From contig MEXN01000007.1 of NCBI GenBank assembly GCA_001773695.1, positions 47,388 to 111,387 on the forward strand: DNA of 64,000 bases, read 5' to 3'. The translations under genes were made by a program, and so were the position numbers. This DNA is from Candidatus Amesbacteria bacterium RIFCSPLOWO2_01_FULL_48_25. Its GTDB lineage: Bacteria; Patescibacteriota; Microgenomatia; CAZETR01; Amesbacteraceae. A model generated the notes under the pieces. It was not told the DNA's origin, searched no databases, and worked only from the letters and a program-made list of their open reading frames with translations. Positions 5,029 to 61,768 of this stretch are shown here, piece by piece. Each line of letters opens with the position of its first letter. The stretch's first letter is position 1.

Positions 5029-5066
5029 AAATTATCCTTCGACTTCGCTCAGGATGACACTACGTG

Positions 5067-13189: not shown

Positions 13190-14164
13190 TCAGGGCTTGA
13201 GATATTTGTCAACGTTTATATTGTGCTCGGTCAAGGTTTTGGCGTAATAAGTTACTCCGTCTGTTCCAGCAAGATAATACCAATAAGGCGAATCAACTGG
13301 AGCTAGGACAGCCTGGATGGATGCTAGGCCGGGATTGGCTATGGGGTGAGGAGGTAAGCCCACATTTTGGTAGGTATTAAAAACTGAGGAGAGTTTAGTA
13401 TCAAAGACCGGTTGCCAGAATTGACAGTTGACAGTTAACAGTTGACAGTTGGCGCTGTCACGGGCGTATTGAACGGTGGCATCGATTTGCAGCGGCCAGT
13501 TGTTTTTCAGGCGCTTTTGGATGATACCTGCGATTATCGGCCTGTCGACTGCCAGTTTAGCCTCGCGTTCTACCAGCGAAGCGATAATAAGCAAGTCTTG
13601 TTGGGAAGGAATTGAAAGGCCGGATTTGCGACGGAAATTTTCGGTCATGATGCGGATAACATCGGAGGCTTGAGATGTGGGAGAAAACCGATATGTATCG
13701 GGGAAAAGCTGCCCTTCTATCGAGGCGGTTTGGTAAACAAACTCAAGGGTGTCAAAATTTGGCAGATCACTACTTACGCGGAGGGCAATTTGTTCCCGGC
13801 GCCAGCCTTCAGGAAGAGTAATTTTGACGTCTTGGGGTCCGGTGGCGAGAGCCGCAAAAATTTCCTTGGCTGAAAGAGCCGGTGAGAGGGAGTATGAACC
13901 GGGACGAAGGCGGCTATCTAACCCCGTAAATTTAAGATAAACACGAGCGGCTAAAATGGAGCGGATGAGACCAGTAGTATGAAGACTGGAAACTGTCGTG
14001 AGAGCGGGTTGGTTTGGGGCAATATTAAAAGTTACTGAAGGGGAACCAGACGATCCTGCTGGGGAAAGCTGGGAGAAAATCCAGAAGTAGGAAAAGGTAA
14101 TTGAGGCTGCGGCGCAAAATCCTAAGAAGAGGGCAAGGATTAGGCTGAGGTTTTTTCCGGTCAC
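13190..14164 (-). CDS. mltG: Endolytic murein transglycosylase MltG (YceG family)
   Basis: N-terminal TM segment, then a YceG-like domain with the EGQLFPDTY motif. Confidence 0.85.
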   Translation of the reverse strand: MTGKNLSLILALFLGFCAAASITFSYFWIFSQLSPAGSSGSPSVTFNIAPNQPALTTVSSLHTTGLIRSILAARVYLKFTGLDSRLRPGSYSLSPALSAKEIFAALATGPQDVKITLPEGWRREQIALRVSSDLPNFDTLEFVYQTASIEGQLFPDTYRFSPTSQASDVIRIMTENFRRKSGLSIPSQQDLLIIASLVEREAKLAVDRPIIAGIIQKRLKNNWPLQIDATVQYARDSANCQLLTVNCQFWQPVFDTKLSSVFNTYQNVGLPPHPIANPGLASIQAVLAPVDSPYWYYLAGTDGVTYYAKTLTEHNINVDKYLKP

Positions 14165-14443: not shown

Positions 14444-14821
14444 AACTGAGGGGGAGAGGTTAGAATCGAGCCAAGATTGCAAGATTATGGCTGCGGCTAC
14501 AGCGTGCTCGTTGGTTTTGCGTCTTTTTTGTGAAGTATGTAGGAGAGATTGACGGGAGTCGTGAGATGAAAGAGTCTCATCAACAATATTTAATGTTAAA
14601 TGTTTAATGTCTAATGCTTTGATAAATTCTTCAAAATCTTTCTTTAACTTTTTATCCGGGCGGCCGATAATTATTGTTCGGATGGAATTATCATCGACTA
14701 ATTGTTTAATTAACTGAACTGCGGATTTGGTAGGTAAAGTGGTCAACGGCTCGGCCAAAGGGCCAGTAGCCAGAGCAACTCCGACGTGTTTTAGCCCATA
14801 ATCGAGACCCAGGCAATTCAT
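14432..14821 (-). CDS. ruvX: Putative pre-16S rRNA nuclease / Holliday-junction resolvase-like YqgF (RuvX)
   Basis: LGLDYGLKHVGVALA N-terminal motif of the YqgF/RNase H-like family. Confidence 0.8.
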   Translation of the reverse strand: MNCLGLDYGLKHVGVALATGPLAEPLTTLPTKSAVQLIKQLVDDNSIRTIIIGRPDKKLKKDFEEFIKALDIKHLTLNIVDETLSSHDSRQSLLHTSQKRRKTNEHAVAAAIILQSWLDSNLSPSVPLS

Positions 14822-15498: not shown

Positions 15499-17574
15499 TT
15501 ATGGAGTCTGGATCGAGACGGTGATATGTCCAGGGAGACGAGGGAGAAAGACAATGGGGTCCGGCAAGGGTAAGCTATAAGTAATTTGGGCACCAGTGAC
15601 GCCGGGATATGAATTGAGGTGGTTTCTGGCCCAGGCGATATTTTTGCCCGCGATCTGAGAGACAATTTGGCTAGAGTCGACTTGAGGCGTAAACCGGGCA
15701 GAAACATTAGTAAATACCGTATTTTCAGACCCGGTAGAACCACGCACTGAAAAACGATAATTTGTCAACTGCCCCAGTTGATAGTTATCGGGGATTTGAT
15801 CTTGCAACTTTTGCTGGACAAGCTCTTCCAGGTTGGATCTGGATACGACCGGGCTTTGGGCTTTAAGAGTGAGCTTGTAGGTGATTTCATTGGCTTCATC
15901 TCCTGTTTTGTGATTTAATTCTTCAGATGTGGTTTGGCTTGTGAAGGTATCCGGGACCAAGATCTGGTCGGGGGTTAATTCTTCGGTAATTTTGGCTTGA
16001 AGAGCTTCGCGAAGTTGGGACATGAGGGTGGATTTGAGCTGGGAAATATCCTCCTGAGCCACAACCCGAGCTTCCCTACTTGAGCCGCCCGAGAGGGCAG
16101 CCTCATTTTTGGCCACCACGTCCAGCTGAGGATAAGTGCCAACACGAAACTCAGTGCCGGCTGTAAGGTTGCCATCAGAGCCAATTTGAGAAGCGGTGAT
16201 CTTGACTGTGACACGGCCTGGTTGGTAGGAATTGGGGTCGGCGGTACCTGAGGCAGAGGCTACCAAGACGCTTGAGTCGGTTGTGAATTTTAGGCTCGTC
16301 GGGGAAGTCAGCAGCGTGCCCGCGGGTAAGTTTTTGACGGTGCTGGTGCCATTTATTATGGTGACAGATCCGGAAGCTGGCTCGCCAACTACTTTGGATC
16401 CGGTGGTAGGAGCGGATTTGGAATCGGATGCCGAGGTTTGTACAAAACTGCCAGTTGTATCGAATTCGGTTGACAAATCCAGGGGAGAAATTTGCAATTC
16501 GACCTTGGCGGATGGTAGATAAAGCGTAGCTAAAACGAGGGCGGCCAAAATGGTAATTATGCCAATCCCCCAAAAAACTAGCCCGAGACGGGGGAGTGTT
16601 GGCCAAGATATGGTAAATGATGGTAATTTGAATTGAGGAAGTTTTAGCTTTGGCAAAGTAAATCGCTTTGATGCGGGGGAGAGCTCATTTTTGGGAGGAG
16701 GGGGAATGGAGGGAGAAGGCGGGGAATTTGGGTTCGGAGCATTTACTCCGGGAGAAAATCCAAGTTGATCTGGAGAAATTTCTAGCGAAGTTTCTTCTCC
16801 CGTGGTGATTAGACCTATGGCTTGGGCGACTTCGGAACCACCTGCCAGGGCAATGGCCCGAATTACAAAATCTTGGGGTAGGGACTCCACCTTGGGAAAA
16901 TGCAGAAATGGCAATCTGGTTTGGGGGGATTGCCAGGGATGAGAGAGTAATTGTTGGCGAATGCTTTCTAGATCCTGGCTGGAATTGTAAAGCAAAATCC
17001 GAGAGGGGAGCATGTCTGTGGGTAAGAGTCGGGAAATGCCTTCGATAACATCGTCTGTGAGCTTGGGGCTGCGACGGACAGTGTGAGTTCCGGTAATCTT
17101 ACCCAAACGAACCAATGAGACTTCCAGATATCCGGCCCAGAAACCCAAGAGGATGGCCGTGGGGGGGGCATTTTCCTGGCTTTGCAAAAAACGGACGGTG
17201 GCTTCGGGGATAACCACATAACCAACTGGTTTGAGAGCCAGTTTGTCAAAAAGCGGACGCAGTAAATTTACTTTGGCGGGATGGATTTTTTCCGTTTCCA
17301 ACCAATCCGGTAATAGTCCTAAAATGATTTTTTCGGGTTGGGTTTTACCCTGGGGATCGAGGTGGTTGCCTGCGTCTGACAGGCTTTGATCGCTGGCTGT
17401 GACCAAGCTATCAGCAGACGAATCGTCCCAGGCGACGCTGCTTCCTACGGCTATAACTTGAGGCCGATTATTGATGACTGCCCAGACGGCACCTTGCACT
17501 TGGCCGTGGCCAATCTGCAAGGCGAAGAGGTATTCGCGTTTGGGATTGGGGTGATTTAAGAAAGGCAGGGTCAT
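15499..17574 (-). CDS. Large membrane-anchored protein. Cytoplasmic N-domain with a tentative actin/FtsA/PilM-like phosphate-1 motif, Pro-rich linker, one TM segment, Ser/Thr-rich extracytoplasmic domain.
   Basis: 691 aa. The motif LFALQIGHGQVQGAVWAV resembles an ASKHA phosphate-1 motif. The linker is PNPNSPPSPSIPPPP. The TM segment is LGLVFWGIGIITILAALVLATLYL. Confidence 0.5.
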   Translation of the reverse strand: MTLPFLNHPNPKREYLFALQIGHGQVQGAVWAVINNRPQVIAVGSSVAWDDSSADSLVTASDQSLSDAGNHLDPQGKTQPEKIILGLLPDWLETEKIHPAKVNLLRPLFDKLALKPVGYVVIPEATVRFLQSQENAPPTAILLGFWAGYLEVSLVRLGKITGTHTVRRSPKLTDDVIEGISRLLPTDMLPSRILLYNSSQDLESIRQQLLSHPWQSPQTRLPFLHFPKVESLPQDFVIRAIALAGGSEVAQAIGLITTGEETSLEISPDQLGFSPGVNAPNPNSPPSPSIPPPPKNELSPASKRFTLPKLKLPQFKLPSFTISWPTLPRLGLVFWGIGIITILAALVLATLYLPSAKVELQISPLDLSTEFDTTGSFVQTSASDSKSAPTTGSKVVGEPASGSVTIINGTSTVKNLPAGTLLTSPTSLKFTTDSSVLVASASGTADPNSYQPGRVTVKITASQIGSDGNLTAGTEFRVGTYPQLDVVAKNEAALSGGSSREARVVAQEDISQLKSTLMSQLREALQAKITEELTPDQILVPDTFTSQTTSEELNHKTGDEANEITYKLTLKAQSPVVSRSNLEELVQQKLQDQIPDNYQLGQLTNYRFSVRGSTGSENTVFTNVSARFTPQVDSSQIVSQIAGKNIAWARNHLNSYPGVTGAQITYSLPLPDPIVFLPRLPGHITVSIQTP

Positions 17575-17580
17575 TAAAAA

Positions 17581-17601
17581 ATTTCTAATTTCTAATTTCT
17601 A
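17581..17601. repeat. Tandem heptanucleotide repeat (ATTTCTA)x3 in the 24-nt alaS to downstream-gene spacer. It overlaps the alaS stop codon.
   Basis: Read directly: atttctaatttctaatttcta. Confidence 0.9.
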
Positions 17602-19347
17602 AACAATTCTTGCATATATTCTCCGAGTGCCTGATCCTAACGACTCCTCCTTGAATATTTTAATACTGCCAATCTCGGCTGTCGAATTTACATGAGGCCC
17701 GCCGCAGAGTTCTTTGGAAAAACCGCCAATTGAATAGACGTTGGCGATATCGGGGTATTTCTCTGGGAAGAAGGCGAGCGCCCCTTCGGCCAGGGCTTGC
17801 TTTTTTTGCATTTCGACTTTGGTCACTGGAATATCCTCAGCTATTTTTTGGTTAATTAACTCTTCCACCTGAATTATTTGTTGATTTGTTAATTTGTCAG
17901 GATGGGAAAAATCAAAACGCAATCTTTCAGCAGTAATATTGCTGCCGGCCTGATGAACGTGATCGCCCAAAACCTGGCGGAGGGCGGCGTGCAACAAGTG
18001 GGTGGCGGTGTGATACTTGGTGGTAATTTCAGACCGGTCCTGCAACCCGCCCTTAAACATGCCCTTGGAGGCAGTACGGGAAAGATCTTGATGTTCTTTT
18101 AATTCTGCCTCGAACTCATTTTCATCAAACTCGATATTTCTTTTCTCGTATAAGTCTTCTATCACCTCTCTTGGGAATCCATAGGATTGATATAAGTCAA
18201 AAGATGGGGCGTTTCCTAGCAGCTTAATTCCAGCTTCGAGAGTTTTATTAAATTTTGTTAACTCATTTTCAATTTCATCAATAATGTCCTTCTTGTTTTT
18301 TAGTAATGTGGGGTATGTGTTTGAATATTCATTTACAAATGCGCTTGTTAGCAACGTGACAATTCCGTTTTCTAAATCACAATTTGCAATTTTTGCGTGT
18401 GCGGCTGCACGTCGTATTAATCGTCTTAACACGTAGCCCTTGTCTTTATTAGATGGAGCAACTCCGCTATCTATAAGAAACATTGCTGCCCTAATGTGGT
18501 CAAGAATAATTCTTAAACCTCTTGAGTCGTCTATAATTTCGTCTTCAAGAACCTTCTTTGCGCTTATAAAAAAGTCTGTTTTAAAAATATCTGGGTCGTT
18601 GTATGCTGCAGCAGTGAGACGTTCTAAGCCCCCACCGAAATCAACATTTTTTTGGGGCAATTCTTTTAAAGACCCGTCGGCTTGTTTCTGGTATTGCATG
18701 AAAACCGAATTGCCGATCTCCAAGAAACGACCGCATTCACAATTGGGATGACATTCACTTCCAAATTTTGGGTCGTGAGGAACTTCGGTAAATTCGTAAA
18801 ATACTTCCGAGTCCGGTCCGCCCGGTTCTCCTGCTGGCATTAAATCTGGGACTCCCGAACGGGACCACCAATTTTTTTTAACTCCGTAATGGAAAATCTT
18901 ATTTTCTGAAATACCGAGTTTTTTCCAAATACCTGCTGATTCATCGTCACGGGGAACTGATACATCGCCTTCGAAAACCGAGACATAGAGCCTATCTTTG
19001 GAGAGACTTACTTCTGAGGTCAAAAATTCGTAAAACCAAGCCAGTTGTTCTTCTTTGAAATAATCGCCCAGAGACCAATTGCCAAGCATTTCAAAAAATG
19101 TGGTATGGCGGTTATCTCCAACCTCCTCGATATCCTGGGTGCGAATGCATTTTTGACTGTTAACAAGCCTGGTTCCGGAGGGATGAGGTTGGCCTAATAA
19201 ATTTAAGACTAGGGGTTGCATGCCACTTGAGGTAAATAATGTCGTGGGGTCGTTTTCGGGGATGAGTGGTGCCGAAGGAATAATTTTGTGTCCCCTGCTC
19301 TCAAAAAATTTCAAGTATTTCTGTCTAATTTCATTAGCTGAAATCAT
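17599..19347 (-). CDS. alaS: Alanine--tRNA ligase (short form lacking the C-terminal C-Ala domain)
   Basis: Catalytic-domain motifs FTSSGMQP, KCIR and DNRHTTFFEMLGNWSLGDYFK. Editing-domain HxxxH and CGGPH are present. The protein ends after the editing domain. Confidence 0.9.
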   Translation of the reverse strand: MISANEIRQKYLKFFESRGHKIIPSAPLIPENDPTTLFTSSGMQPLVLNLLGQPHPSGTRLVNSQKCIRTQDIEEVGDNRHTTFFEMLGNWSLGDYFKEEQLAWFYEFLTSEVSLSKDRLYVSVFEGDVSVPRDDESAGIWKKLGISENKIFHYGVKKNWWSRSGVPDLMPAGEPGGPDSEVFYEFTEVPHDPKFGSECHPNCECGRFLEIGNSVFMQYQKQADGSLKELPQKNVDFGGGLERLTAAAYNDPDIFKTDFFISAKKVLEDEIIDDSRGLRIILDHIRAAMFLIDSGVAPSNKDKGYVLRRLIRRAAAHAKIANCDLENGIVTLLTSAFVNEYSNTYPTLLKNKKDIIDEIENELTKFNKTLEAGIKLLGNAPSFDLYQSYGFPREVIEDLYEKRNIEFDENEFEAELKEHQDLSRTASKGMFKGGLQDRSEITTKYHTATHLLHAALRQVLGDHVHQAGSNITAERLRFDFSHPDKLTNQQIIQVEELINQKIAEDIPVTKVEMQKKQALAEGALAFFPEKYPDIANVYSIGGFSKELCGGPHVNSTAEIGSIKIFKEESLGSGTRRIYARIV

Positions 19348-33367: not shown

Positions 33368-34754
33368 TTATAAGATCGCCGGGTTTAAAGTCAATATATG
33401 GGCTGAACACGGCACCGAATTCCAAGCCAGATTTTACAGTGATGACATTGGATTTTCCTGATTTTAAGGACTTTATTCGAGTTTCTCCGACTAGAATGTC
33501 GCCGCGCATTATCTTTATTTTATGGGACTTGTTAATGACTCCCTCGGTGCATTTACAGCCTGCAATCCGGTCGGTGTTAATTTTGAACTGGGCGATTATT
33601 TGGGCTCGTCCGAGTATGTTCTCCACCACCGGCTGGACTATAAGTTTATCGATTTGCTCCAATAGTTCGTAAATGATTTTGAAGGAGTAAATACTAACTT
33701 TTTCGACTTCGGCAAGCTTGGATACTGAGGCTGGAGCTTTGACATTGAAGCCGACCACAATGCCAGCCCCGGACTTGGCGGTGGAAATGTTGGTTTCAGT
33801 GATATCGCCGGTACCAGAAGATAAGACAGTTACTGTTGGGGGGAGAGCATTTAATATAGCCTCTAAAGAGCCGGCGACATCGGCACGAAGAATGATATTG
33901 AGCCCGGAGGATTCTGTAACTCCCCCTGCATCCCCTCTTGATTCAAGAGGGGGAACTTTAGTGGGAAACATTGGGGCTGCACTAATCAGTGACCCTACAA
34001 CAGGTACTGTGTTTAGACCTAATATTTCAACCGGGGTTGAGGGGGGAGCTTGTTTAATATTTTGACCATCTGAGTCAATTAGAGCCCGGGCTTTACCGAT
34101 GACTTGGGCCTGATAAATTGCCGAACCTACCCGTAAAGTACCATTTTTCACGATAACCGTGGCTAGCGGGCCTTTTTGAGAATCCAGACGTGATTCCAAA
34201 ACTACCGCCGTTGCTGGAAGATCGGGATCGGATTGAGGGGGGTGAAGAGAAACAAGCAATTCAAGCATTTCAAGCAATTCAGGCAAGCCCTGGCCAGTTT
34301 TGGCTGAAATTGAAACCGCAGGAATTTTGCCACCAAAGTCTTCTACTATTACATTGGCTTCAGTTAATTGAGTCTTTACTTTATCGGGATTTGAGTCGGG
34401 CAAATCTGATTTGTTTAGAACCACGACGAAGGGAATGCCGGCTGCTTTTATAAACTCTATTGACTCTCTCGTCTGGGGCATAACACCATCGACCGCTGAA
34501 ATTACGAGAATGGCAATATCGGCAATTTCACTGCCCCGGGAACGCATAGCTGTAAAGGCCGCGTGACCGGGAGTGTCGATAAAAGTCATTAGCTTTAAGC
34601 TTTCAGTCTTTAGCTGGAAGGAGCGGATAGCTTGAGTGATGCCTCCGGTTTCACGGGCGGCAATGCTGGATTTTCGCAAGTAATCCAACAGAGTGGTCTT
34701 GCCATGATCGACATGGCCTAAAATTACTACGATGGGAGGACGAGGGATTTGCAT
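33351..34754 (-). CDS. infB: Translation initiation factor IF-2 (short form, G-domain onward)
   Basis: [21 protein letters not shown]. 467 aa. Confidence 0.92.
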   Translation of the reverse strand: MQIPRPPIVVILGHVDHGKTTLLDYLRKSSIAARETGGITQAIRSFQLKTESLKLMTFIDTPGHAAFTAMRSRGSEIADIAILVISAVDGVMPQTRESIEFIKAAGIPFVVVLNKSDLPDSNPDKVKTQLTEANVIVEDFGGKIPAVSISAKTGQGLPELLEMLELLVSLHPPQSDPDLPATAVVLESRLDSQKGPLATVIVKNGTLRVGSAIYQAQVIGKARALIDSDGQNIKQAPPSTPVEILGLNTVPVVGSLISAAPMFPTKVPPLESRGDAGGVTESSGLNIILRADVAGSLEAILNALPPTVTVLSSGTGDITETNISTAKSGAGIVVGFNVKAPASVSKLAEVEKVSIYSFKIIYELLEQIDKLIVQPVVENILGRAQIIAQFKINTDRIAGCKCTEGVINKSHKIKIMRGDILVGETRIKSLKSGKSNVITVKSGLEFGAVFSPYIDFKPGDLIIAVEV

Positions 34755-39889: not shown

Positions 39890-40126
39890 CTAGGGCAGGT
39901 CAGTAAGAAAGACGTGAACCGCGGCTCCGGTAACAAGGGAGACACCTGGAACAGCGTAGTTGTCACCTCTGGCTTTCCAGAGTTCGAGTTGATCAGGGGT
40001 AATGTTGTGTAATCGGACTTCTTCTCCAGTTTTAATTATGATGACTGCGTGTTTTTCGGGAGGTAAAGCGGGAGAGCCGGCGCCACAACCAAAGCCTGGT
40101 CCTTCAATTCGAGACATCGGGGCCAA
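39890..40126 (-). CDS. Hypothetical protein
   Basis: 78-aa ORF. GFGCGAG near the N-terminus. No family recognised. Confidence 0.3.
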   Translation of the reverse strand: MAPMSRIEGPGFGCGAGSPALPPEKHAVIIIKTGEEVRLHNITPDQLELWKARGDNYAVPGVSLVTGAAVHVFLTDLP

Positions 40127-40180
40127 AAAAAAGAGCCGGGTGGCTCTTTGAAATAAAATAATTTGTCCAGGTAGTCATGA

Positions 40181-40570
40181 ATGGCTCCTGGGAGTAAAGT
40201 ATATCACATGAAGTGGAGCGATAGGTTTTGGGTGACAATGCTCGTTCTTCTGCCTTTAATCGGAGTGTATCGGATAGGATATTATTTTTGGTACCACAAG
40301 CAGGTAATTGTAAAACCCTTAGAAGGAGAGTGGAAAAACTATGGGAAATGTAAGAGGGATAGCGAGTGTGCAAAAACCGCTAACCCTAATTGCAGCGGGT
40401 GCGGGTGCGGGGTGTATATAAATCGAGAATCTTTAGGAAATTATATGGATCAACTTAAGAAACAGTGTCAGGGAGAGTCGGGGCAGGTGTGTTTCGGGGC
40501 AGTATGCCCACAAACCAATGCGGCGTGTATTGAGGGATATTGCGTGGGGAAGAGAATTGAGTCCCAGTAA
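40181..40570 (+). CDS. Cysteine-rich membrane-anchored/secreted small protein
   Basis: N-terminal signal-anchor FWVTMLVLLPLIGVY. 10 Cys in the C-terminal 70 aa (CKRDSECAKTANPNCSGCGCG...CIEGYCVG). Confidence 0.5.
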   Translation: MAPGSKVYHMKWSDRFWVTMLVLLPLIGVYRIGYYFWYHKQVIVKPLEGEWKNYGKCKRDSECAKTANPNCSGCGCGVYINRESLGNYMDQLKKQCQGESGQVCFGAVCPQTNAACIEGYCVGKRIESQ

Positions 40571-40621
40571 TTGACCCTTGCAAAGGGAAGCTGGGATGCG
40601 ATAGAATCGTTACCGCATCAT

Positions 40622-41800
40622 ATGGCGACATTTCAAAGAACCAAACCGCACGTCAACATCGGAACTATTGGTCATGTGGACCATGGGAAGACGACTTTAA
40701 CTTCGGCTATCACCATGGTTTTGGCCAAAAAGGGGATGGCGACTGCCAAAAAGTACGAGGACATTGATTCGGCACCGGAAGAAAGAGCCCGAGGAGTGAC
40801 GATTAATTTATCCCACCAGGAGTATGAGACGGAGAAGAGGCACTATGCCCACATCGATGCGCCGGGTCACGCCGACTACATCAAGAACATGATTACCGGA
40901 GCTGCCCAAATGGACGGGGCGATTTTGGTAGTATCTGCCGCGGATGGGCCTATGCCCCAGACCCGAGAGCATATTCTTTTGGCCAAGCAGGTGAATGTGC
41001 CGGCGATCGTAGTGTTTTTGAACAAATGCGATATGGTGGATGACGAGTCACTTTTGGATCTGGTCGAGATGGAAGTTAGGGAGCTACTGACTAAATACGG
41101 CTACAAGGGGGACGAAGTGCCCATAATCCGGGGATCGGCACTAAAGGCTACTGAGGGGGATGCCAAGTATGAAGAGAAAATAATTGAACTGATGAAGGCG
41201 GTCGATGAACACGTGCCAACTCCCGTACGGGAACTGGACAAGCCGTTTTTGATGCCGATTGAAGACGTGTTTTCTATTAAAGGCCGGGGGACGGTGGTAA
41301 CCGGCCGGATTGAGCGGGGCGTGGTCAAGCTAAACGAGACTATTGAAATTGTAGGAATTAAGGCTACTAAGTCGACGGTTGTAACCGGGGTAGAGATGTT
41401 TAGAAAGCAACTTGATGAGGGTCAGGCGGGAGACAATGTGGGAGTCTTGCTGCGCGGAATTGAAAAGGACGACGTGGAAAGAGGGCAAGTGCTAGCTAAG
41501 CCGGGGAGCATTACCCCGCACACCGAGTTTGAAGCCGAAGTGTACATCTTGAAGAAGGAAGAGGGTGGACGGCACACTTCTTTCTTCACTGGGTATAGGC
41601 CGCAGTTTTACATCCGGACAACGGATGTGACGGGCGAGGTGACCCTCGCTTCTGGCGTCGAGATGGTCATGCCCGGAGATAACGCCAAGATGAAAGTGAA
41701 GTTGATCGTGCCAGTCGCTATTGAAGAGGGATTGAGGTTTGCTATTCGCGAGGGCGGTAAAACCGTGGGTGCGGGAGTAGTGACCAAAATTATTAGTTAG
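40622..41800 (+). CDS. tuf: Elongation factor Tu
   Basis: Start placed at [27 protein letters not shown]. The track ORF begins at an upstream TTG. Confidence 0.97.
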
Positions 41801-41816
41801 TGCGTTGCTCTTTTAT

Positions 41817-42125
41817 ATGGCAAAGGGAAGACTGAGAGTCAGACTGAAGTCTTTTGACCACCGGGTCATAGATGAGGCGGTAGCCAAGATATTGGATGCC
41901 GCGATTTCCACAGGGGCAAAAGTTGTAGGCCCAATCCCCTTGCCAACAGATAGAAAACTGATGGCGGTAAATACCTCTCCGCATACGGATAAAGACGCTC
42001 GGGAACATTTTGAGATGTTGGTGCACAAGCGGTTGATTGACGTGGTCGACCCGACGCCGAAGACCATCGAAGCTCTTTCTAATCTGGATCTGCCAGCCGG
42101 AGTGGATATTGAAGTGAAGATGTAG
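41817..42125 (+). CDS. rpsJ: 30S ribosomal protein S10
   Basis: MAKGRLRVRLKSFDHRVIDEA... ATG at 41817. Confidence 0.92.
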   Translation: MAKGRLRVRLKSFDHRVIDEAVAKILDAAISTGAKVVGPIPLPTDRKLMAVNTSPHTDKDAREHFEMLVHKRLIDVVDPTPKTIEALSNLDLPAGVDIEVKM

Positions 42126-42134
42126 AATAAGATT

Positions 42135-42374
42135 ATGCCGGAATACGATGTGGTTGTAACTACGAATGGTAACTACGCAAAGGCCACTCTTGACGGTTTT
42201 GTTCTAACCGCTGCGGTCATAGACGGTGGAGTTGTAAAGAGGTTTTGGTTTGACGGAGCAACACTGAGGATGGAAACGCCTGATATTTCTCATGAGGTAG
42301 CGAAGGCTTTGATGTTGGGATTAAGACTTAATTCCCGAGTCACTAAAGTGGAACTCGAACCTAAAAGGGTTTGA
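42135..42374 (+). CDS. Hypothetical 79-aa protein inserted between rpsJ and rplC
   Basis: Intact ORF MPEYDVVVTTNGNYAKATLDGF... No family recognised. Confidence 0.4.
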   Translation: MPEYDVVVTTNGNYAKATLDGFVLTAAVIDGGVVKRFWFDGATLRMETPDISHEVAKALMLGLRLNSRVTKVELEPKRV

Positions 42375-42377
42375 TGG

Positions 42378-42407
42378 TTGGAAACTTTCGGGGAAATCTG
42401 GTATACT
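42378..42407 (+). promoter_or_regulatory. Putative sigma70-type promoter: TTGGAA, 18-nt spacer with TG, TATACT. Lies upstream of the rplC leader.
   Basis: -35 TTGGAA at 42378-42383. TG at 42399-42400. -10 TATACT at 42402-42407. Confidence 0.3.
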
Positions 42408-42482
42408 GGGTTCACTGTGGGCAGAGAGAATTGCCAGACTATTGCTCCGGTACCGTAAGGTTGGCTAGGTAAGTTTTTATAT

Positions 42483-42504
42483 AGCGCCGACGGGCGCTTT
42501 TTTT
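42483..42504 (+). terminator. Intrinsic terminator or attenuator hairpin (AGCGCC-GACG-GGCGCT followed by TTTTTTT), 14 nt upstream of the rplC ATG
   Basis: Perfect 6-bp GC-rich stem, 4-nt loop, 7-T tract. Lies within an approximately 100-nt leader. Confidence 0.55.
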
Positions 42505-42518
42505 GACCGAAAACATAA

Positions 42519-43082
42519 ATGAACACCATATTTGCCAAAAAAATTGGAATGACTGGAAAATATACCCCTGACCGGGCGAGGGTGGGAGTAACAACGTTAC
42601 GGGTATTTCCAACTACGGTTGTGGGGTTAAGAACTAAGGACAAACATGGTTATGAGGCGGTGGTGGTCAAGTCACAAGTCACAAGTCACAAGTCACAGCT
42701 GCGGGAAATAAGGACCGGGGAGAAAATGGAGCCGGGGACGGAGATAAAATTGGAGGAGGTCTTAAAAGTCGGGGACGTGGTAAGAGTGGCTGGGATAAGC
42801 AAGGGAAAGGGATTTGCGGGAGTGGTAAAGAGGCACGGGTTTGCCGGGGGTCCCAGAACCCATGGACAATCTGACCGGGAGCGGGCGCCGGGATCGAGTG
42901 GGTCGACCACCACTCCGGGGAGAGTTTACAAAGGAAAGAGACGGGCGGGAAGAATGGGAAATGAAAGAATAAGCGTAAAGGGTCTTAAGGTTTTGGAAGT
43001 TGACACACAGAATAACTTGTTGACAATTATTGGGTCAGTGCCGGGAAGCCGCGGGGGGCAATTGGAGGTAAGCCGGATATGA
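42519..43082 (+). CDS. rplC: 50S ribosomal protein L3
   Basis: KKIGMTGKY... and GKGFAGVVKRHGF motifs. Confidence 0.95.
   Translation: MNTIFAKKIGMTGKYTPDRARVGVTTLRVFPTTVVGLRTKDKHGYEAVVVKSQVTSHKSQLREIRTGEKMEPGTEIKLEEVLKVGDVVRVAGISKGKGFAGVVKRHGFAGGPRTHGQSDRERAPGSSGSTTTPGRVYKGKRRAGRMGNERISVKGLKVLEVDTQNNLLTIIGSVPGSRGGQLEVSRI
42668..42698 (+). repeat. Perfect tandem heptanucleotide repeat (CAAGTCA)x4 inside rplC
   Basis: Read directly: tcaagtcacaagtcacaagtcacaagtcacag. Encodes QVTSHKSQ. Confidence 0.95.
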
Positions 43083-43705
43083 TTAGCGCAGGAAGTATTA
43101 ATTGGAAAGGAGAAGCCGGGGAAAAGATCACTTTACCCAAGGCTGTGTTTGAAGCGAAGGTCTCTCCTACTCTTTTGGCCCAAGCTCAGAGAGTGTACTT
43201 GGCAAACCAGAGGAAAGCTAGGGCCCGGACTAAAACCCGGGGGGAAGTGGAGGGATCGACCCGCAAAATCTACAGACAAAAAGGTACTGGGGGAGCGAGG
43301 CATGGCTCGATCAGAGCGCCAATTTTTGTAGGTGGAGGAATTTCCCACGGGCCGACGGGAGGACAAAATTATATACTGAAAATGCCGCGAAAAATGGGGT
43401 CGACGGCGCTTCTGGGGGCATTGGCTGATCGAGCGGCTTCTAAAAGAATAGTCGTCGTGACTGGCCTGAAGCTGCCGGAAAAAACCAAGGCGGCATCTTC
43501 GATGTGGAAGAAGGCAAAATTGGAAAAAGGGGCCCTTTTGGTAATATCCGACAAAGAGATGGCGGGGAGGAAGAGTTTTAGAAATTTGAAAGATGTGGAG
43601 GTAGCGCTGGCTTCTAGTTTAAACCCGTACGAGGTGCTTGGTTGTAAGCAATTAGTTATTTCTCAGGCTGCGATTGAGGCTCTTTCTAAAAGATATGTTA
43701 ATTAG
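43079..43705 (+). CDS. rplD: 50S ribosomal protein L4
   Basis: 208 aa, L4 family, overlaps rplC by 4 nt. Confidence 0.92.
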   Translation: MISAGSINWKGEAGEKITLPKAVFEAKVSPTLLAQAQRVYLANQRKARARTKTRGEVEGSTRKIYRQKGTGGARHGSIRAPIFVGGGISHGPTGGQNYILKMPRKMGSTALLGALADRAASKRIVVVTGLKLPEKTKAASSMWKKAKLEKGALLVISDKEMAGRKSFRNLKDVEVALASSLNPYEVLGCKQLVISQAAIEALSKRYVN

Positions 43706-43985
43706 GCCAATTATTACGGAAAAATCTCTGAGAGAAGCGGGTTTAAAACGGTATGCTTTCCGGGTAGCTAAGGATGCTTCTAAGCCTAAAATAGGGAAGG
43801 CTGTGGAAAAAATGTTTGGAGTAAAAGTACTTTCGGTACGAACAATGACCATGCCCGGAAAAGCTTACCGGACGGGTAAAAAGTGGAAACTGGGCCGTAG
43901 GGAAGACTGGAAAAAGGCTGTGGTAGCAATTAAACCGGATCAAAAAATTGATTTATTTGAAGTCGGGTCCCAAAAGGACAAATAA
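43695..43985 (+). CDS. rplW: 50S ribosomal protein L23
   Basis: MLIRPIITEKS... ATG at 43695. The track ORF begins at an upstream TTG. Confidence 0.9.
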   Translation: MLIRPIITEKSLREAGLKRYAFRVAKDASKPKIGKAVEKMFGVKVLSVRTMTMPGKAYRTGKKWKLGRREDWKKAVVAIKPDQKIDLFEVGSQKDK

Positions 43986-43988
43986 CAT

Positions 43989-44729
43989 ATGGAAAAAAAA
44001 CTAAGGCGGGTAATACCCAAACAATCAGGGCGAGGAGCTACTGGGCAAATAACTACCAGACACCAAGGAGGGCGGGAAAAGAGATTTTTCAGAGTGATCG
44101 ACTGGAAACGAGAGAAAAGGGATATGCCGGCCGTGGTAGAAGGGATTGAATATGATCCCAATCGGTCAGCTGATATAGCCTTGATCCTATATCCGGATGG
44201 AGAGAGAAGATATATTTTGGCACCAGACGGACTTAAGACTGGTCAATTGGTATCTAGTGGAGAAGCAGCACCACTGACATCTGGAAACGCATTGCCCCTG
44301 CGGGCGATACCAGTGGGAACACCGATTCATGCCGTAGAAATCCACCCAGGTAAAGGGGCCCAAATAGTGAGAGGTGCGGGGACTGCGGCGACTATTGTAG
44401 GCTTTGAAGATGCCTTCGCTTTGGTAAGATTGCCCTCCGGGGAAGTCCGGAGGTTTGCGACCGAGGCCTTGGCCACAATCGGTCAAGTGGGAAACACCGA
44501 GTGGAAAAACACGGTTTGGGGCAAAGCCGGGAGGAGACGCCATTTGGGAATAAGGCCCACGGTTCGAGGAACGGCCCAAAATCCAAGAAGCCATCCCCAC
44601 GGTGGCGGGGAAGGCCGATCTGGCGAGGGAATGCATCCCAAAACGCCGTGGGGCAAGCCCGCGCGGGGCAAAAGAACCCGGAATAAATTTAAGTATTCTA
44701 ATTATTTAGTCGCCCAAAGGAGAAAGTGA
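43989..44729 (+). CDS. rplB: 50S ribosomal protein L2
   Basis: 246 aa. Basic C-terminus [23 protein letters not shown]. Confidence 0.95.
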
Positions 44730-44730
44730 T

Positions 44731-45015
44731 ATGGCCAGATCAAACAAAAAAGGACCATATATAGACCTAAAATTAATGAAGAAGGTGCAAAAACTCAAGG
44801 AGTCAGGCACTAGTACGGCTATTAAAACGTGGGCTAGGGGGAGTCAGATTCCGCCCGAGTTTGTAGGACTAACTTTTTCTATTCACACCGGAAACAAATT
44901 CGTAGATGTATTTATCACCGAAAGCATGGTAGGGCACCGGTTGGGAGAGTTTGCCCCAACGAGAGTGTTCCGCGGCCATGGAGCTATTGTTAAGAGAACA
45001 ATGGAAAAGACATAA
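44731..45015 (+). CDS. rpsS: 30S ribosomal protein S19
   Basis: [19 protein letters not shown]... with [11 protein letters not shown]. Confidence 0.95.
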
Positions 45016-45017
45016 AA

Positions 45018-45395
45018 ATGACAAATCAAAAATCAAAAATCAAAAATCAAAAGACAGTGGTGGCGAGGGCGAGTTTTGTGAGAAATGCGCCTCGGAAATT
45101 GAGGTTGGTAGCTGATGCGGTGCGAGGACTGTCGCCGCTGTCTGCAATAGAAGCTCTAAAACACTTACCACAACGGGGGGCGAGGCCTGTGAGGCTGGTG
45201 CTGGAGCAGGCGATGGGTAATGCCAAAAACAACGCTGGGTTTTCCCCGGATCGACTGCTTATTGATACTATCCAGGTTATGGGGGGGCCAAGGGTCGCAA
45301 AAAAAAGCGATGTTCATGCTCGAGGGGCGAGATTTGGCAGGGGGACAAGAGTAAAAAGGTTATCTCATGTTTTAGTTCGATTAAAGGAGGTATAA
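45018..45395 (+). CDS. rplV: 50S ribosomal protein L22 (N-terminal extension encoded by a heptamer repeat)
   Basis: NAPRKLRLVADAVRG... is L22. The N-terminal sequence TNQKSKIKNQK is encoded by four AAATCAA repeats. Confidence 0.93.
   Translation: MTNQKSKIKNQKTVVARASFVRNAPRKLRLVADAVRGLSPLSAIEALKHLPQRGARPVRLVLEQAMGNAKNNAGFSPDRLLIDTIQVMGGPRVAKKSDVHARGARFGRGTRVKRLSHVLVRLKEV
45023..45052 (+). repeat. Perfect tandem heptanucleotide repeat (AAATCAA)x4 inside the rplV start region
   Basis: Read directly: acaaatcaaaaatcaaaaatcaaaaatcaaaag. Confidence 0.95.
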
Positions 45396-45397
45396 AA

Positions 45398-46063
45398 ATG
45401 GGACAAAAAGTAAACCCTATTAGCTTTCGAATTCCCCTGGCACCATCGACTGCTTGGGTTTCCCGCTGGTTTACCACTAATCATAAACGCTATGCGGACT
45501 ATTTGGCTACGGATGTAAAGTTGCGTCTGGCGGTAATGGAAAAGCTAGTCTCTGCCGGGGTAACCAGAGTGGAGATTGAACGGTCACTAAAAAGCATGAG
45601 GATTGTGGTGTATGTGACGCGGCCGGGGATTGTTATCGGACGGGGAGGATCGGGCTTAGAGGAGCTAAAAAAGTTTATTTATGCGCACTTGGGCCACACA
45701 GCTTCTGGAAAGACCGCGCCCAAAATAGACCTGCAGGTAGAAGAGGTGAAAAACCCCGATTTATCAGCCTGGTTGGTAGCCACTAGAATTGCTGAACAGC
45801 TAGTAAAAAGGATGCCGCCAAGAAGAGTCGTTAACAGGGCGATGGAGAGAACTATCCAATCGGGAGCCCGGGGAGTGAAGGTGTTACTGTCTGGGCGGAT
45901 AAACGGAGCGGAAATTGCGCGGCGTGAGCCTTATAAATCCGGATCCGTACCATTGCAGACCTTGAGGGCAAATATTGATTACGCCCAAGTACCGGCTTTA
46001 ACCAGGTCGGGGTACGTGGGGGTTAAAGTGTGGATATGTAAGGGGGAAAATGTTACAACCTAA
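45398..46063 (+). CDS. rpsC: 30S ribosomal protein S3
   Basis: KH domain plus S3 C-terminal domain. 221 aa. Confidence 0.95.
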   Translation: MGQKVNPISFRIPLAPSTAWVSRWFTTNHKRYADYLATDVKLRLAVMEKLVSAGVTRVEIERSLKSMRIVVYVTRPGIVIGRGGSGLEELKKFIYAHLGHTASGKTAPKIDLQVEEVKNPDLSAWLVATRIAEQLVKRMPPRRVVNRAMERTIQSGARGVKVLLSGRINGAEIARREPYKSGSVPLQTLRANIDYAQVPALTRSGYVGVKVWICKGENVTT

Positions 46064-46457
46064 AAAACAAAAATACCGGAAACAATTTAGAGGACAGATG
46101 CCGGGCCTGGCTTGGAGGGGGTCGGAGGTGGCGTTTGGAGAGTTTGGGCTGCAATCGATGCAGCGGGGTTGGTTGTCTGCCCGACAAATAGAAGCGGCCA
46201 GAAAGGCCATTACTCACCATGTGCAAAGAGGAGGTAAGGTGTGGATCAAGGTATTTCCGGATAAACCTGTGACCAAAAAGGCCCTGGGAACGAGGATGGG
46301 TTCGGGGAAGGGAGATATTCACGAATATGTGGCTGTAATCCGCCCGGGGAGAATTATTTTTGAGATTGCCGGAGTCCCGGAAGATATTGCCAAAACCGCT
46401 TTTTTACGAGCGGCGGCTAAATTACCGTTTGATGTGAAGATTATTTCGAAAAGATAA
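46050..46457 (+). CDS. rplP: 50S ribosomal protein L16
   Basis: MLQPKKQKYRKQFRG... is L16. Confidence 0.95.
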   Translation: MLQPKKQKYRKQFRGQMPGLAWRGSEVAFGEFGLQSMQRGWLSARQIEAARKAITHHVQRGGKVWIKVFPDKPVTKKALGTRMGSGKGDIHEYVAVIRPGRIIFEIAGVPEDIAKTAFLRAAAKLPFDVKIISKR

Positions 46458-46461
46458 AACC

Positions 46462-46668
46462 ATGGCCAAGAAAAAACAAGAAGTGATAAAGATTACCGAT
46501 ATGACGGGCACGGAGTTGGCCGCCCGGGCAAAAGAGCTAAGACGAGAAGTGGCCAAAACTAGAATGGAAATCGCTGCTAAAAAGCAAAGGAATACCAGGA
46601 AAGCATTTAACTTGCGGCGTGAATTGGCCCGGACACTGACAGTGTTAAATATCAAGTTAATGCGATAA
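46462..46668 (+). CDS. rpmC: 50S ribosomal protein L29
   Basis: 68 aa with a coiled-coil L29-like sequence, located between rplP and rpsQ. Confidence 0.88.
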   Translation: MAKKKQEVIKITDMTGTELAARAKELRREVAKTRMEIAAKKQRNTRKAFNLRRELARTLTVLNIKLMR

Positions 46669-46682
46669 AATAGCCAATACTT

Positions 46683-46922
46683 ATGAAAACTTTAAGCGGA
46701 TTAGTTGTTTCAGACAAAATGCAAAATACCGTAGTGGTGGCTGTCGCTAAGTGGATGAAACACCCCAAATACGACAAACGGACAAAGAAAACCAGGAAGT
46801 ACCACGCCCGGAATGAGACCGGAGCCAAAGTGGGGGACACTGTCACTATAGTTGAGGTGAAACCTGTGGCTAAGACAGTATTTTTTAAAGTGGTGGGAGT
46901 AGAAAGCGGGGGTAAGAAATAA
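46683..46922 (+). CDS. rpsQ: 30S ribosomal protein S17
   Basis: [18 protein letters not shown]... is S17. Confidence 0.92.
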
Positions 46923-46923
46923 T

Positions 46924-47295
46924 ATGTTACAACTGCGAAGTATCTTAAAACTCGCCGACAACTGTGGCGCTCGAAAATTGCGCCTGATTCACATCGTGGG
47001 TGGATCGAAGCGCAAATGGGCATACTTGGGAGACACCGTCACGGCGGTTGTGGATCGAGCCGACCCCATGGGAGTAGTAAAAGACTCGGAAATAGTGAAG
47101 GCGGTAATAGTGCGCACCCGAAGGGGAGGAAGGCGTCGGGACGGAAGTTTTATAAGATTTGATGACAACGCGGCTGTTGTTATCGACCCCAAAACGGGGG
47201 AGCCCAGGGGGACGCGAATTTTCGGGCCGGTGGCTCGGGAAGTGAAAGACAGAGGATTTAATAAAATTGCCTCATTGGCAGCAGAGGTACTATGA
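46924..47295 (+). CDS. rplN: 50S ribosomal protein L14
   Basis: [17 protein letters not shown]... is L14. Confidence 0.95.
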
Positions 47296-53594: not shown

Positions 53595-54020
53595 ATGCCG
53601 AGAATTGCTGGAGTAGATATCCCCGAGAAAAAAAGAGTAGACGTCGCTTTGACGTATATTTACGGCATTGGCAGGACGAATGTAAAACCGATTTTAGAGA
53701 GAGCGCAAGTGAATCCGGCCAAACGAACGGCCGAGTTGACGTCTGAAGAATTATCCCGTTTGCAAAAATTGGTGGACGCTTTGAAAGTGGAGGGAGACTT
53801 ACGAAAAGAGATAGGGCAAAATATTACTAGACTTAAAGAGACTGGGAGTTACAGAGGAATCCGGCACAGCAAGGGCTTGCCGGTCAGAGGACAGCGGACA
53901 CGGACAAATGCCCGAACCAAAAGAGGGAAGAGAGTGACTATTGGAGCTTTGAAGAAGGAGGCCTTGGGCAAGGTAGAAGCGGCCAAGGCGGAAAAAGAAA
54001 AGAAGGAGGCGGCCAAATAA
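53595..54020 (+). CDS. rpsM: 30S ribosomal protein S13
   Basis: [26 protein letters not shown]... is S13. Confidence 0.95.
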
Positions 54021-54021
54021 A

Positions 54022-54363
54022 ATGAAGGGCAAAGTATTTATCACGGCAACTTTTAATAATACTTTGGTGACTATCACGGATATGTCTGGGAATACCGTAG
54101 CTTGGGGGTCGGCTGGAGCGGCGGGATTTAAGGGAGCCAGGAGAGCCACGCCGTTTGCGGCTACAACTGCCGTCGAGGTGGCGGCTAGAAAAGCCATGGG
54201 GGCCGGGATTAAAGAAGTGGAAGTATACCTAAAAGGCCCCGGGTCTGGGCGGGATGCGGCACTGCGCGCTTTAAAAGCGGTGGGGATGAAGATGAGCTTG
54301 ATTGCGGATGTGACTCCCCTGCCCCATAACGGGCCCAGGCCGGAAAAAAGAAGGAGGGTTTAG
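54022..54363 (+). CDS. rpsK: 30S ribosomal protein S11
   Basis: [18 protein letters not shown]... is S11. Confidence 0.95.
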
Positions 54364-59997: not shown

Positions 59998-61768
59998 GAA
60001 TTGACAGGAAGGCCTCTTGGGGAATGTCAATCTTACCGAAACGGCGCATGCGAGCTTTACCTTTCTTTTGCTTTTTTAATAACTTGTCTTTTCTTGTCTG
60101 ATCGCCGCCAGACATTTTGGCCAGGACATCTTTACGAAACGACTTGAGATCTGCGCGAGCTATAATATGGCCGCCAATGGCTGCCTGGATACTGATTTCA
60201 AATTGCTGACGGGGAATAATATTTTTGAGACGTTCCACCAGATCGCGGGCAATATATGGAGATTGGAATCTGGGGACAATTTGAGAAAAAGCATCGACGC
60301 GATCGCCGCCAATCAAAATATCCAGCTTTACTAGATCCCCGGCTTTGAACTCGGCTACTTGGTAGTCGATAGTTGCATAGCCGGCTGAAGCACTTTTAAG
60401 TTGGTCATAAAAACCACGAATGAGCTCGACTAACGGTAAATTGTAACTGAGGTGAACGAGTTTGCCTTTGTAGGACATATCGATAAGTTCTCCCCTGTGA
60501 TTTTGACAAACTTGCATGACGGATCCCAGAAATTCCTGGGGTAAGAAAAGAGAAGCGTTGATGAACGGTTCGCGGATCTCTTTAATTGTTGAGGGGTCGG
60601 GTAGATCAGACGCCTTGGAAATAGTCTGTAGCTTATGGTTGGTAGTCGCTAGCTCGTAGGAGACGGATGGGGCGGCGGCAATCAGATTGAGGCCAAACTC
60701 GCGTTCGAGGCGCTCCTGAACTATATCCGCATGCAGTAGCCCCAACAGTCCCAAACGAAAGCCGTTACCCAGGGCTGGAGAAAACTCGGGGACATAAGTA
60801 AATGAGCTGTCCTGAAGGCGGAGTTTGGTTAGCGCGTCTCTAAAATTACTTATTTCGGCACCGTCGGTAGGATAAAAGCTGATAAACACGACGGGCTTTA
60901 GCGGTTGGTAACCAGGTAGTTGAGAGGAGGAGAAAGTATTGGAAAGTGTGTCGCCGATTTGGATTTGAGAGATGTCTTTAAGATTGGTGACCACATAGCC
61001 GACCTCGCCAGCGGATAATTTACCGGTAGGGGTTTTGGCGGGAGTGAAGACCCCGACTTCAATTGCCGAAACTAGGGTATTGGTAGCAAGCAAAAACAAC
61101 TTCTCTCCTGTTTTTATTTCTCCATCCACAATTCTAACCCAAGCTATTACTCCAAGGTGGGAATCAAAATTCGAATTAAAGACAAGGGCGCGAGTGGTTT
61201 GCGGCTGAAACCCGGGAGCTGGGACTTTATTGATTATGGTCTCCAGAAGTTCGGGGATACCGGCGCCAGTTTTGGCGGAGACGAGAAGAATAGAATCAAT
61301 GTCGAAATCTAAAATATCGTGCACTTGCTGTTTAGTCCCTTCGATATCGGCGGTTACTACGTCGATTTTGTTGATGACCGGGATAATCGTCAGGCTCAAT
61401 TTCTTGGCCTGGTTGTAATGGGCCAGGGTTTGGGCTTGAACCCCTTGGGTGGCATCGACTAACAAAATCGCACCTTCACAAGCGGCTAGAGAACGGTTGA
61501 CTTCATAAGAAAAGTCCACATGTCCCGGTGTGTCGATCAGGTTTAAGGTATAGGGTATATCGTATAACGTATAACGCATCCGTACCGGGGCGAGTTTGAT
61601 AGTAATCCCCCGCTCTCTTTCGATAGGGTTGCTATCTAGAAGTTGGTCCTGCATTTCTCGCTTGGAGACTGTGCCGGTTAGCTCCAGCATCCGGTCTGCC
61701 AGGGTGGATTTGCCGTGATCAACGTGGGCAATAATCGCGAAATTGCGGATGTTTCTGATATTTTGCAC
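59987..61768 (-). CDS. lepA: Elongation factor 4 (LepA)
   Basis: [26 protein letters not shown] and a LepA-specific C-terminal domain. 593 aa. Confidence 0.95.
   Translation of the reverse strand: MQNIRNIRNFAIIAHVDHGKSTLADRMLELTGTVSKREMQDQLLDSNPIERERGITIKLAPVRMRYTLYDIPYTLNLIDTPGHVDFSYEVNRSLAACEGAILLVDATQGVQAQTLAHYNQAKKLSLTIIPVINKIDVVTADIEGTKQQVHDILDFDIDSILLVSAKTGAGIPELLETIINKVPAPGFQPQTTRALVFNSNFDSHLGVIAWVRIVDGEIKTGEKLFLLATNTLVSAIEVGVFTPAKTPTGKLSAGEVGYVVTNLKDISQIQIGDTLSNTFSSSQLPGYQPLKPVVFISFYPTDGAEISNFRDALTKLRLQDSSFTYVPEFSPALGNGFRLGLLGLLHADIVQERLEREFGLNLIAAAPSVSYELATTNHKLQTISKASDLPDPSTIKEIREPFINASLFLPQEFLGSVMQVCQNHRGELIDMSYKGKLVHLSYNLPLVELIRGFYDQLKSASAGYATIDYQVAEFKAGDLVKLDILIGGDRVDAFSQIVPRFQSPYIARDLVERLKNIIPRQQFEISIQAAIGGHIIARADLKSFRKDVLAKMSGGDQTRKDKLLKKQKKGKARMRRFGKIDIPQEAFLSILKV

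Follow-up and report, generated by a model that had tools for sequence, protein, structure and literature searches.

Why should the gene of an essential ribosomal protein open with a perfect tandem repeat whose unit is not a multiple of three? The question is raised by rplV, the gene of ribosomal protein L22, in a stretch of 64,000 nucleotides from the uncultured groundwater organism Candidatus Amesbacteria bacterium RIFCSPLOWO2_01_FULL_48_25 (contig MEXN01000007.1, positions 47,388 to 111,387), called here, as a whole, the window. L22 is essential, and just behind the ATG of its gene stand four perfect copies of the heptamer AAATCAA. We put at roughly 0.55 the probability that this tract is a translated heptanucleotide microsatellite, due to a lineage-wide bias to 7-nt units and held at a copy number that preserves the frame. 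Direct repeats of 7 nt in particular are enriched in this genome and in its relatives. The features around the rplV start are the following.

45023 to 45052, plus strand: perfect heptanucleotide array (AAATCAA)x4.29 in codons 2–12 of rplV, identical in 12 same-species loci (L001, L089–L099)
45018 to 45395, plus strand: rplV (ribosomal protein L22) open reading frame (ORF) of 125 aa, ATG at 45018–45020, Pfam PF00237
45057 to 45062, plus strand: two in-frame GTG codons (Val14, Val15), the first being the start picked by the JGI and ENA callers
44731 to 45015, plus strand: rpsS (S19), Pfam PF00203, with its TAA stop at 45013–45015, 2 nt before the rplV ATG

A direct scan finds a period-7 run of 30 nt without mismatch, four AAATCAA units at 45023–45050 and then AA, which begins 5 nt after the rplV ATG and agrees to the nucleotide with the perfect four-copy repeat described in the original prediction, made from the DNA letters alone. 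Tandem Repeats Finder extends the array to 45014–45052 (period 7, 5.6 copies, 90% matches) and gives it the highest score of the window, 64. Read from the ATG, the repeat encodes TNQKSKIKNQK ahead of the L22 core, again as predicted. The complete predicted tail, MTNQKSKIKNQKT, is rich in Lys, Gln, Asn and Ser and is probably disordered. The ORF matches Pfam Ribosomal_L22 (PF00237) with E=1.9e-18 and 67 bits (cut-off 28), residues 16–122 covering profile positions 1–103 of 104, and the gene sits in the S10 operon with rpsS upstream and rpsC (S3) downstream.

The region is A-rich and short-read metagenome assemblies may hold errors, so that the repeat might in principle be low-complexity sequence that arose by chance, or an error of assembly or sequencing. 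However, in mononucleotide shuffles perfect runs of period 7 that reach 18 nt occur about 0.015 times per 64 kb, in line with the earlier claim that the repeat is far beyond chance, and shuffles within 60-nt blocks yield no imperfect four-copy arrays. Different pipelines arrived at the same sequence in independent assemblies of more than 10 samples, and 30 nt is much shorter than a read or an assembly k-mer. The independent assemblies effectively refute this reading.

Comparison of rplV 5' ends in related genomes, a check that the original prediction had itself proposed, shows that the site carries heptamer tracts elsewhere as well, built from different units. The closest relatives by L22 (65–68% identity) bear them right after the homologous ATG, and tracts with other units occupy the site in at least three related lineages. 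A metagenome scan with the L22 core returned three loci, none of them from the window's species, and provided the sister-species contig L086. The tracts read as follows.

Sister species (L002, L086): ATGA(CCAAATC)x3 CCAAAAT, a perfect 26-nt run of 3.7 units
L003 to L005: CAAGTCA-CAAATCA-CAAATCC
L101: CAATACC-CAAGTCC-CAAGTAT, degenerate, after the ATG

Residual lag-7 periodicity is detectable at this site in L003 (P=0.0014), L018 (P=0.006) and L011 (P=0.04), and two of the three differences between the array-encoded codons of L086 and L003 are synonymous. L011 and L018, both Amesbacteria by GTDB, are of particular use here: their tails (MKDAKLKIQGTKVVTARASF and MKNTKSNIEELKTVVAKASF, respectively) contain no perfect repeat and are nevertheless of the same length as that of the window (MTNQKSKIKNQKTVVARASF), 15 residues before the conserved ARASF motif. 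Nine of the 15 tail residues are identical between L018 and the window, as against 49% identity over the L22 match. Since same-length tails exist without a perfect repeat, the tail appears to be older than the repeat. We rejected the repeat as creator of the N-terminal extension.

Is the tail made at all? Identical DNA is annotated with two rplV products, one of 125 aa that starts at the ATG and one of 112 aa that starts at the first GTG. The ATG is used in NCBI records and in calls on short contigs, the GTG in JGI and ENA calls on long contigs (P0001, P0031), and JGI contig Ga0209431_10000004 (412 kb) has the same DNA as the window. Three NCBI accessions carry the 125-aa protein, OGC98465.1, OGD03313.1 and HJZ05261.1, all from Candidatus Amesbacteria (Microgenomates group, Candidate Phyla Radiation (CPR)). 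Because the same DNA stands under both products and every GTG call comes from a contig of 20 kb or more, these calls look like gene-caller behaviour. S19 is likewise annotated in two ways, with 94 or 79 aa.

Neither candidate start has a Shine-Dalgarno (SD) sequence: the ATG is preceded only by GGA at 12 nt and the GTGs by nothing, while an SD of four or more bases is found at roughly half of the operon genes. In the predicted fold the S19 stop, the rplV start and the array are all unpaired. A riboswitch-like or attenuator-like fold at the rplV start was rejected, as the RNA at the site is not more stable than shuffled sequences (z=–0.5); a search of positions 40000–47000 of the window against Rfam (E<=1) matched no family. 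In nearly all relatives compared the ATG adjoins the S19 stop, L011, L007 and L086 lack any further canonical start ahead of ARASF, and most other CPR L22 genes begin three to six codons before ARASF, beside the S19 stop. As same-length tails occur in two relatives without the perfect repeat, ATG 45018 is, judging from sequence comparison, quite probably the real rplV start, and we conclude that the tail is likely translated and that it probably predates the perfect array. With no SD at either start, translation would most likely enter at the ATG through coupling to termination of S19, whose stop lies 2 nt upstream.

The two GTG codons had been proposed as rescue starts. Both are indeed present after the repeat, but as conserved rescue starts they were rejected, for the start-codon form is not kept in relatives: L011 has GTA GTT at this position and L086 has ATT GTT ATT. 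Codons 14 and 15 are ordinary conserved Val codons.

What happens when the number of units changes follows from arithmetic, which bears out the earlier statement that a change by a single 7-nt unit is a frameshift: the rplV ATG is in frame solely with 1, 4 or 7 units. When there are 3 or 6, the upstream ORF stops at a TGA located 22 nt beyond the first GTG, and this terminal TGA overlaps a downstream GTG (GTGA); when there are 2 or 5, it stops 56 nt beyond the first GTG. In the window's species four units were found in 12 of 12 readable loci (L001, L089–L099) from more than 10 samples. It should be noted that these copies are near-clonal, 99.9–100% identical to the window with 0–4 substitutions per 5 kb, and give little power, and that 10 of the loci were found through the ATG-start protein, so that four units are there by construction. 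The GTG-start product is independent of copy number; 2 of its 19 contigs were read, both with four units. By exact look-up in a collection of about 15 billion proteins, neither the 1-unit and 7-unit forms of the window's L22, nor the 0-unit and 6-unit forms of the sister-species L22, nor the 5-unit upstream-ORF peptide were present.

Slippage by one unit is nevertheless documented, in the sister species. Contig L100 (ENA ERZ27254858 k141_1269927, 9.8 kb; site at 2380–2440) is 99.65% identical to L086 over 5,769 nt; the two differ by 13 substitutions and just one indel, in which L100 has lost precisely one CCAAATC unit. This loss puts the rplV ATG out of frame, so that it reads 16 codons to a TGA; the L22 frame runs on from the S19 stop and has no canonical start before ARASF, nor any until the GTG of S-F-V-R, where the gene call begins (P0034, 110 aa). 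All other genes of L100 are intact, and since the array is much shorter than a read, the off-frame allele is probably real. The in-frame form is found on about 15 sister-species contigs, the off-frame form on one. Hence the slippage that the original prediction envisaged does occur, but in the relative and not in any readable copy from the window's species. How L22 is made from the L100 allele is a matter of speculation: initiation at AUU or AUC, use of a downstream GTG via the GTGA overlap, or a –1 slip. The shifted frame holds the sequence C_CCA_AAA, where a –1 ribosomal slip would, going by the letters, restore the L22 frame.

The rplV array is not alone, even within the operon.

42668 to 42697, plus strand: perfect 30-nt array (CAAGTCA)x4.29, in frame inside rplC (L3, 42519 to 43082)

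This array encodes KSQVTSHKSQ in a variable loop of L3. Of 13 related species, 11 show a heptamer period in the homologous loop (lag 7 is the strongest lag, P<=0.015), for example as (AAGATTY)x4 in L013 and (xxTCAAG)x4 in L017, and the repeat-encoded peptide of the window, VKSQVTSHKSQL, resembles the non-repeat peptide VKIQTTDHKSQT of L015. Because periodic homologues exist at both sites, the rplV and rplC arrays can be regarded as perfect forms of old, clade-wide tracts. Perfection over 30 nt, synonymous positions included, implies recent homogenisation or a constraint at the nucleotide level. A slip by one unit inside L3 would be a lethal frameshift, with no rescue start possible, and steps of three units (21 nt) are the sole simple in-frame route. 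That the rplV array is only one of several in 64 kb, and that another lies in the middle of L3, where no rescue start can exist, points to a mutational habit more than to a dedicated switch.

Upstream of L3, the S10–L3 gap of about 390 nt (42126–42518) contains a 79-aa ORF (42135–42374) that has no Pfam match and is called by several pipelines. After it, about 20 nt before the L3 ATG, lies a terminator-like hairpin, GCGCC-GACG-GGCGC followed by T7 (~42474–42497), without an Rfam match, which could be an attenuator inside the S10 operon.

Across the window the same habit is visible. The rplV array is by no means unique: the window contains at least six heptamer arrays, three perfect (at least 23 nt) and three imperfect, one of them in the middle of L3, and a weak array is also present in rpsM (S13). 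The arrays beyond rplV and rplC are listed here.

17580 to 17602, minus strand: perfect array (AGAAATT)x3.3, overlapping the alaS stop and ending 5 nt before the next ATG
13421 to 13451, minus strand: imperfect array, unit TTGACAG as read on the plus strand, x4.4, inside a YceG-family gene
14585 to 14616, minus strand: imperfect array, unit AATGTTT as read on the plus strand, x4.6, inside ruvX
61544 to 61576, minus strand: imperfect array, unit TAACGTA as read on the plus strand, x4.7, inside lepA

Four arrays in the window are perfect over 18 nt or more, three of them with period 7, and the window has no perfect array of comparable length at period 5 or at periods 8–15. When 15% mismatch is allowed, five imperfect four-copy arrays appear at lag 7, against none in block shuffles; at the same stringency lags 5, 6 and 8–12 give none in the window. 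In about 635 kb of related loci, 11 perfect arrays of at least 18 nt have period 7, some of which are duplicates of the sister-species array, and each other period has between 0 and 5. All window arrays lie in or beside housekeeping genes, and their units are all different: AAATCAA, CAAGTCA, AATTTCT, TTGACAG, AATGTTT and TAACGTA.

Repeats of other periods were also seen. A period-9 array, (CAAGCAATT)x3.8 at 34253–34286, lies inside the IF-2 gene, and a 21-nt tandem duplication at 53986–54028 lies where S13 ends and S11 starts; both are of in-frame length and belong to translation genes.

Some of the heptamer arrays stand in places that suggest a role in translation initiation. The 17580 array reads on the minus strand TAG..(AGAAATT)x3..TTTTA-ATG, with no SD before this ATG, which opens a gene (15499–17574) with a weak Baseplate_J-like match. 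Ribosomal protein operons of other CPR bacteria have unrelated heptamer arrays close upstream of starts without an SD, namely those of L14 (L028, 5890–5916), S3 (L050, 4553–4572) and L22 (L061, 3900–3995, and L042), and in L057 (2865–2900) an array spans the ATG of another ribosomal protein gene. L054, also from Patescibacteria, carries the same heptamer spacer of about 60 nt before both L16 (~4980–5090) and S8 (~7415–7525), whose starts likewise have no SD. This spacer consists of a TTAGRGM-type array followed by (CTAAACT)x2.6, the two being mutual reverse complements, and could, by its sequence, form a hairpin like those of cyanobacterial short tandemly repeated repetitive (STRR) sequences.

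The closest genome-wide precedent for such a pattern is the TAACTGA repeat of marine Beggiatoaceae, cyanobacteria and some Bacteroidetes, where a single unit recurs throughout the genome in 169 sets of 2–6 tandem copies (MacGregor 2015, PMC4679880). These sets mostly lie a few nucleotides from start codons, are over-represented near translation genes and usually go without an SD; the forward unit has stops in all frames and is intergenic, a few sets fall within ORFs, at the ends of the proteins, and heptamers of related sequence seldom occur as repeats in the genome (PMC4679880). The window is alike in its short 7-nt arrays at many loci, at least six in 64 kb, in its SD-less starts (the rplV ATG and GTGs, and the 17580 ATG) and in the involvement of ribosomal protein operons. 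It differs in that every array has its own unit, which led us to reject one shared unit of the TAACTGA kind, in that the rplV and rplC arrays are open, in frame and inside essential genes, and in belonging to a CPR lineage. The intergenic layout before a start, as in Beggiatoaceae, is found at the 17580 array and in other CPR operons; the L3, YceG, RuvX and LepA arrays are internal to genes; the rplV array lies downstream of the favoured ATG and would precede a start only if GTG 45057 were used. On its coding strand the 13421–13451 array reads (CAACTGT)n and shares just the AACTG core with TAACTGA, maybe by coincidence. The STRR and Nostoc heptamers of cyanobacteria, for which a regulatory or translational role has been proposed, are genome-wide too, often near promoters or starts and in some cases overlapping the start (PMC2670836; bioRxiv 10.1101/2022.06.06.494920). 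The likeness is more distant, as these are a few recurrent unit families, mostly non-coding and not reported in frame in ribosomal protein genes.

By analogy with the proposals made for TAACTGA and STRR repeats, the rplV array could be an initiation or coupling element that replaces the SD, serving as a landing pad poor in G and free of structure, or else binding S1, Csp or a factor of that sort, and it could work with the ATG or be the untranslated leader of GTG 45057. Both rplV starts lack an SD, the fold prediction leaves array and start unpaired, and the array ends 4 nt before GTG 45057, which mirrors the 5 nt between the 17580 array and its SD-less ATG. The CPR arrays 5' of L14, S3, L16, S8 and L22 starts, or spanning a start, have the same layout, as do those in Beggiatoaceae, ribosomal protein operons included, where SDs are rare (MacGregor 2015, PMC4679880). 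A downstream start would moreover explain how the off-frame L100 allele is viable, and the JGI and ENA callers choose the GTG. Against this, the ATG of relatives adjoins the S19 stop and several of them have no other start; the sister species has no canonical start between its array and ARASF. The conserved tail length and the 9 of 15 residues shared with L018 suggest constraint at the protein level, and two differences out of three between L086 and L003 are synonymous. Units that differ from array to array make a single sequence-specific binding factor unlikely, the z-score of the fold is unremarkable, and the GTG calls go with long contigs, a probable gene-caller effect. On the whole we hold an initiation element at rplV to be unlikely, though it is the first of the alternatives.

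The original prediction proposed a potential slipped-strand switch. Slippage would toggle between tailed L22 initiated at the ATG and tail-less L22 initiated at the GTG codons, and such a contingency switch would yield heritable and reversible heterogeneity of the ribosome. The closest mechanistic precedent is neuO of Escherichia coli K1, an O-acetyltransferase gene of the CUS-3 prophage with AAGACTC units in its 5' coding region that vary freely by strand slippage; full-length protein, the ON state, is made only at copy numbers divisible by three, and with 3–53 units (mode 20) 65.6% of genomes are out of phase (PMC13001214). As in neuO, the rplV repeat is a translated 5' tandem array of a non-triplet 7-nt unit that sets the frame, with one in three copy classes in frame. 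The off-frame allele that arose by loss of one unit in a sister-species strain is in keeping with a switch, as is the GTGA overlap at 3 or 6 units, which could allow re-initiation. The GTG pair immediately precedes the conserved core, near where many CPR L22 proteins begin, and a product started from it would be a complete core.

The differences from neuO are, however, substantial. The rplV tract has 4.3 units (3.7 in the sister species), far from the long tract that gives high slippage, and no readable copy from the window's species varies in number. The neuO gene is accessory, phage-borne and capsule-modifying, dispensable and facing the environment, whereas rplV is an essential housekeeping gene, neither a surface nor a defence gene; neuO does without a downstream rescue start, which an OFF state of rplV would need, and the GTGs, lacking an SD, are not conserved as starts. 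The sister species is in frame on about 15 contigs and off frame on one, and L3 contains an array just as perfect, in a place where a switch would be lethal. We therefore consider the switch improbable. The off-frame sister-species allele, with its C_CCA_AAA site, suggests a broader form of the idea, in which the arrays of Amesbacteria and other CPR bacteria would be an actively homogenised class of elements, located at translation starts or just within them and in surface loops of ribosomal protein genes, and slippage in rplV would toggle L22 with a Lys-rich tail and tail-less L22 made by re-initiation or from a non-canonical start; this, too, has little probability in our view. Of the overall reading given in the original prediction, the frame arithmetic, the translation of the tail and the slippage of units stand; the parts that do not hold are how the tail arose, the singular nature of the site, and the switch.

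We thus return to the microsatellite reading as the favoured one. In this explanation a lineage-wide bias of replication slippage or duplication towards 7-nt units would make the tracts and re-homogenise them, and selection on essential rplV would admit only frame-preserving states (1, 4, 7 and so on), this species being held at four. Initiation at the ATG by coupling to S19 would give a tailed L22, and off-frame alleles would be mutational accidents, maybe partly tolerated via downstream starts, with no regulated switch.

Several observations weigh against this explanation. Four units throughout the window's species say little about stability, because the copies are near-clonal. In one natural population the off-frame L100 allele reached the assembly consensus, and in that species L22 can apparently be made without the ATG, as the switch and leader ideas predict. 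The arrays upstream of SD-less starts, in CPR operons and at 17580, hint at a role in initiation. Finally, that two old tracts are each perfect over 30 nt implies continuing homogenisation or selection on the nucleotides themselves, for which a model of purely passive by-products gives no account, least of all in L3, where intermediates one unit off should be lethal.

Two more systems are comparable in part. In Haemophilus influenzae, 7-nt simple sequence repeats of 13–38 copies in the hmw1A and hmw2A promoters, ~100 bp upstream, grade the transcription of adhesins (PMC2651432); the unit length is that of rplV, but slippage there alters transcription and not the frame of a housekeeping gene, which makes the likeness more distant. 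Perfect tandem repeats inside ORFs of Borg elements are described as giving low-complexity, probably disordered segments with fast turnover (PMC9879509). As in rplV, the repeats are inside ORFs; the Borg host is an archaeal extrachromosomal element and not a bacterial operon of essential genes. Our literature search turned up no specific account of heptanucleotide repeats in CPR or Patescibacteria.

In-frame non-triplet arrays in rplV and rplC are unusual, since such microsatellites are normally purged from essential coding sequence, and here the two sites keep their heptamer periodicity between species with no more than 50–70% protein identity. On the practical side, the case shows how inconsistent public start-site annotation can be, with 125 aa and 112 aa given for identical DNA. 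If the bias is mutational, CPR bacteria share a preference for 7-nt units with cyanobacteria and Beggiatoaceae, and a common peculiarity of replication or repair is possible. If the arrays are functional, they would be elements of SD-independent initiation or a switch on a ribosomal protein. And should the toggle prove true, it would be a contingency locus on the ribosome itself, creating heritable heterogeneity in an organism with a minimal genome.

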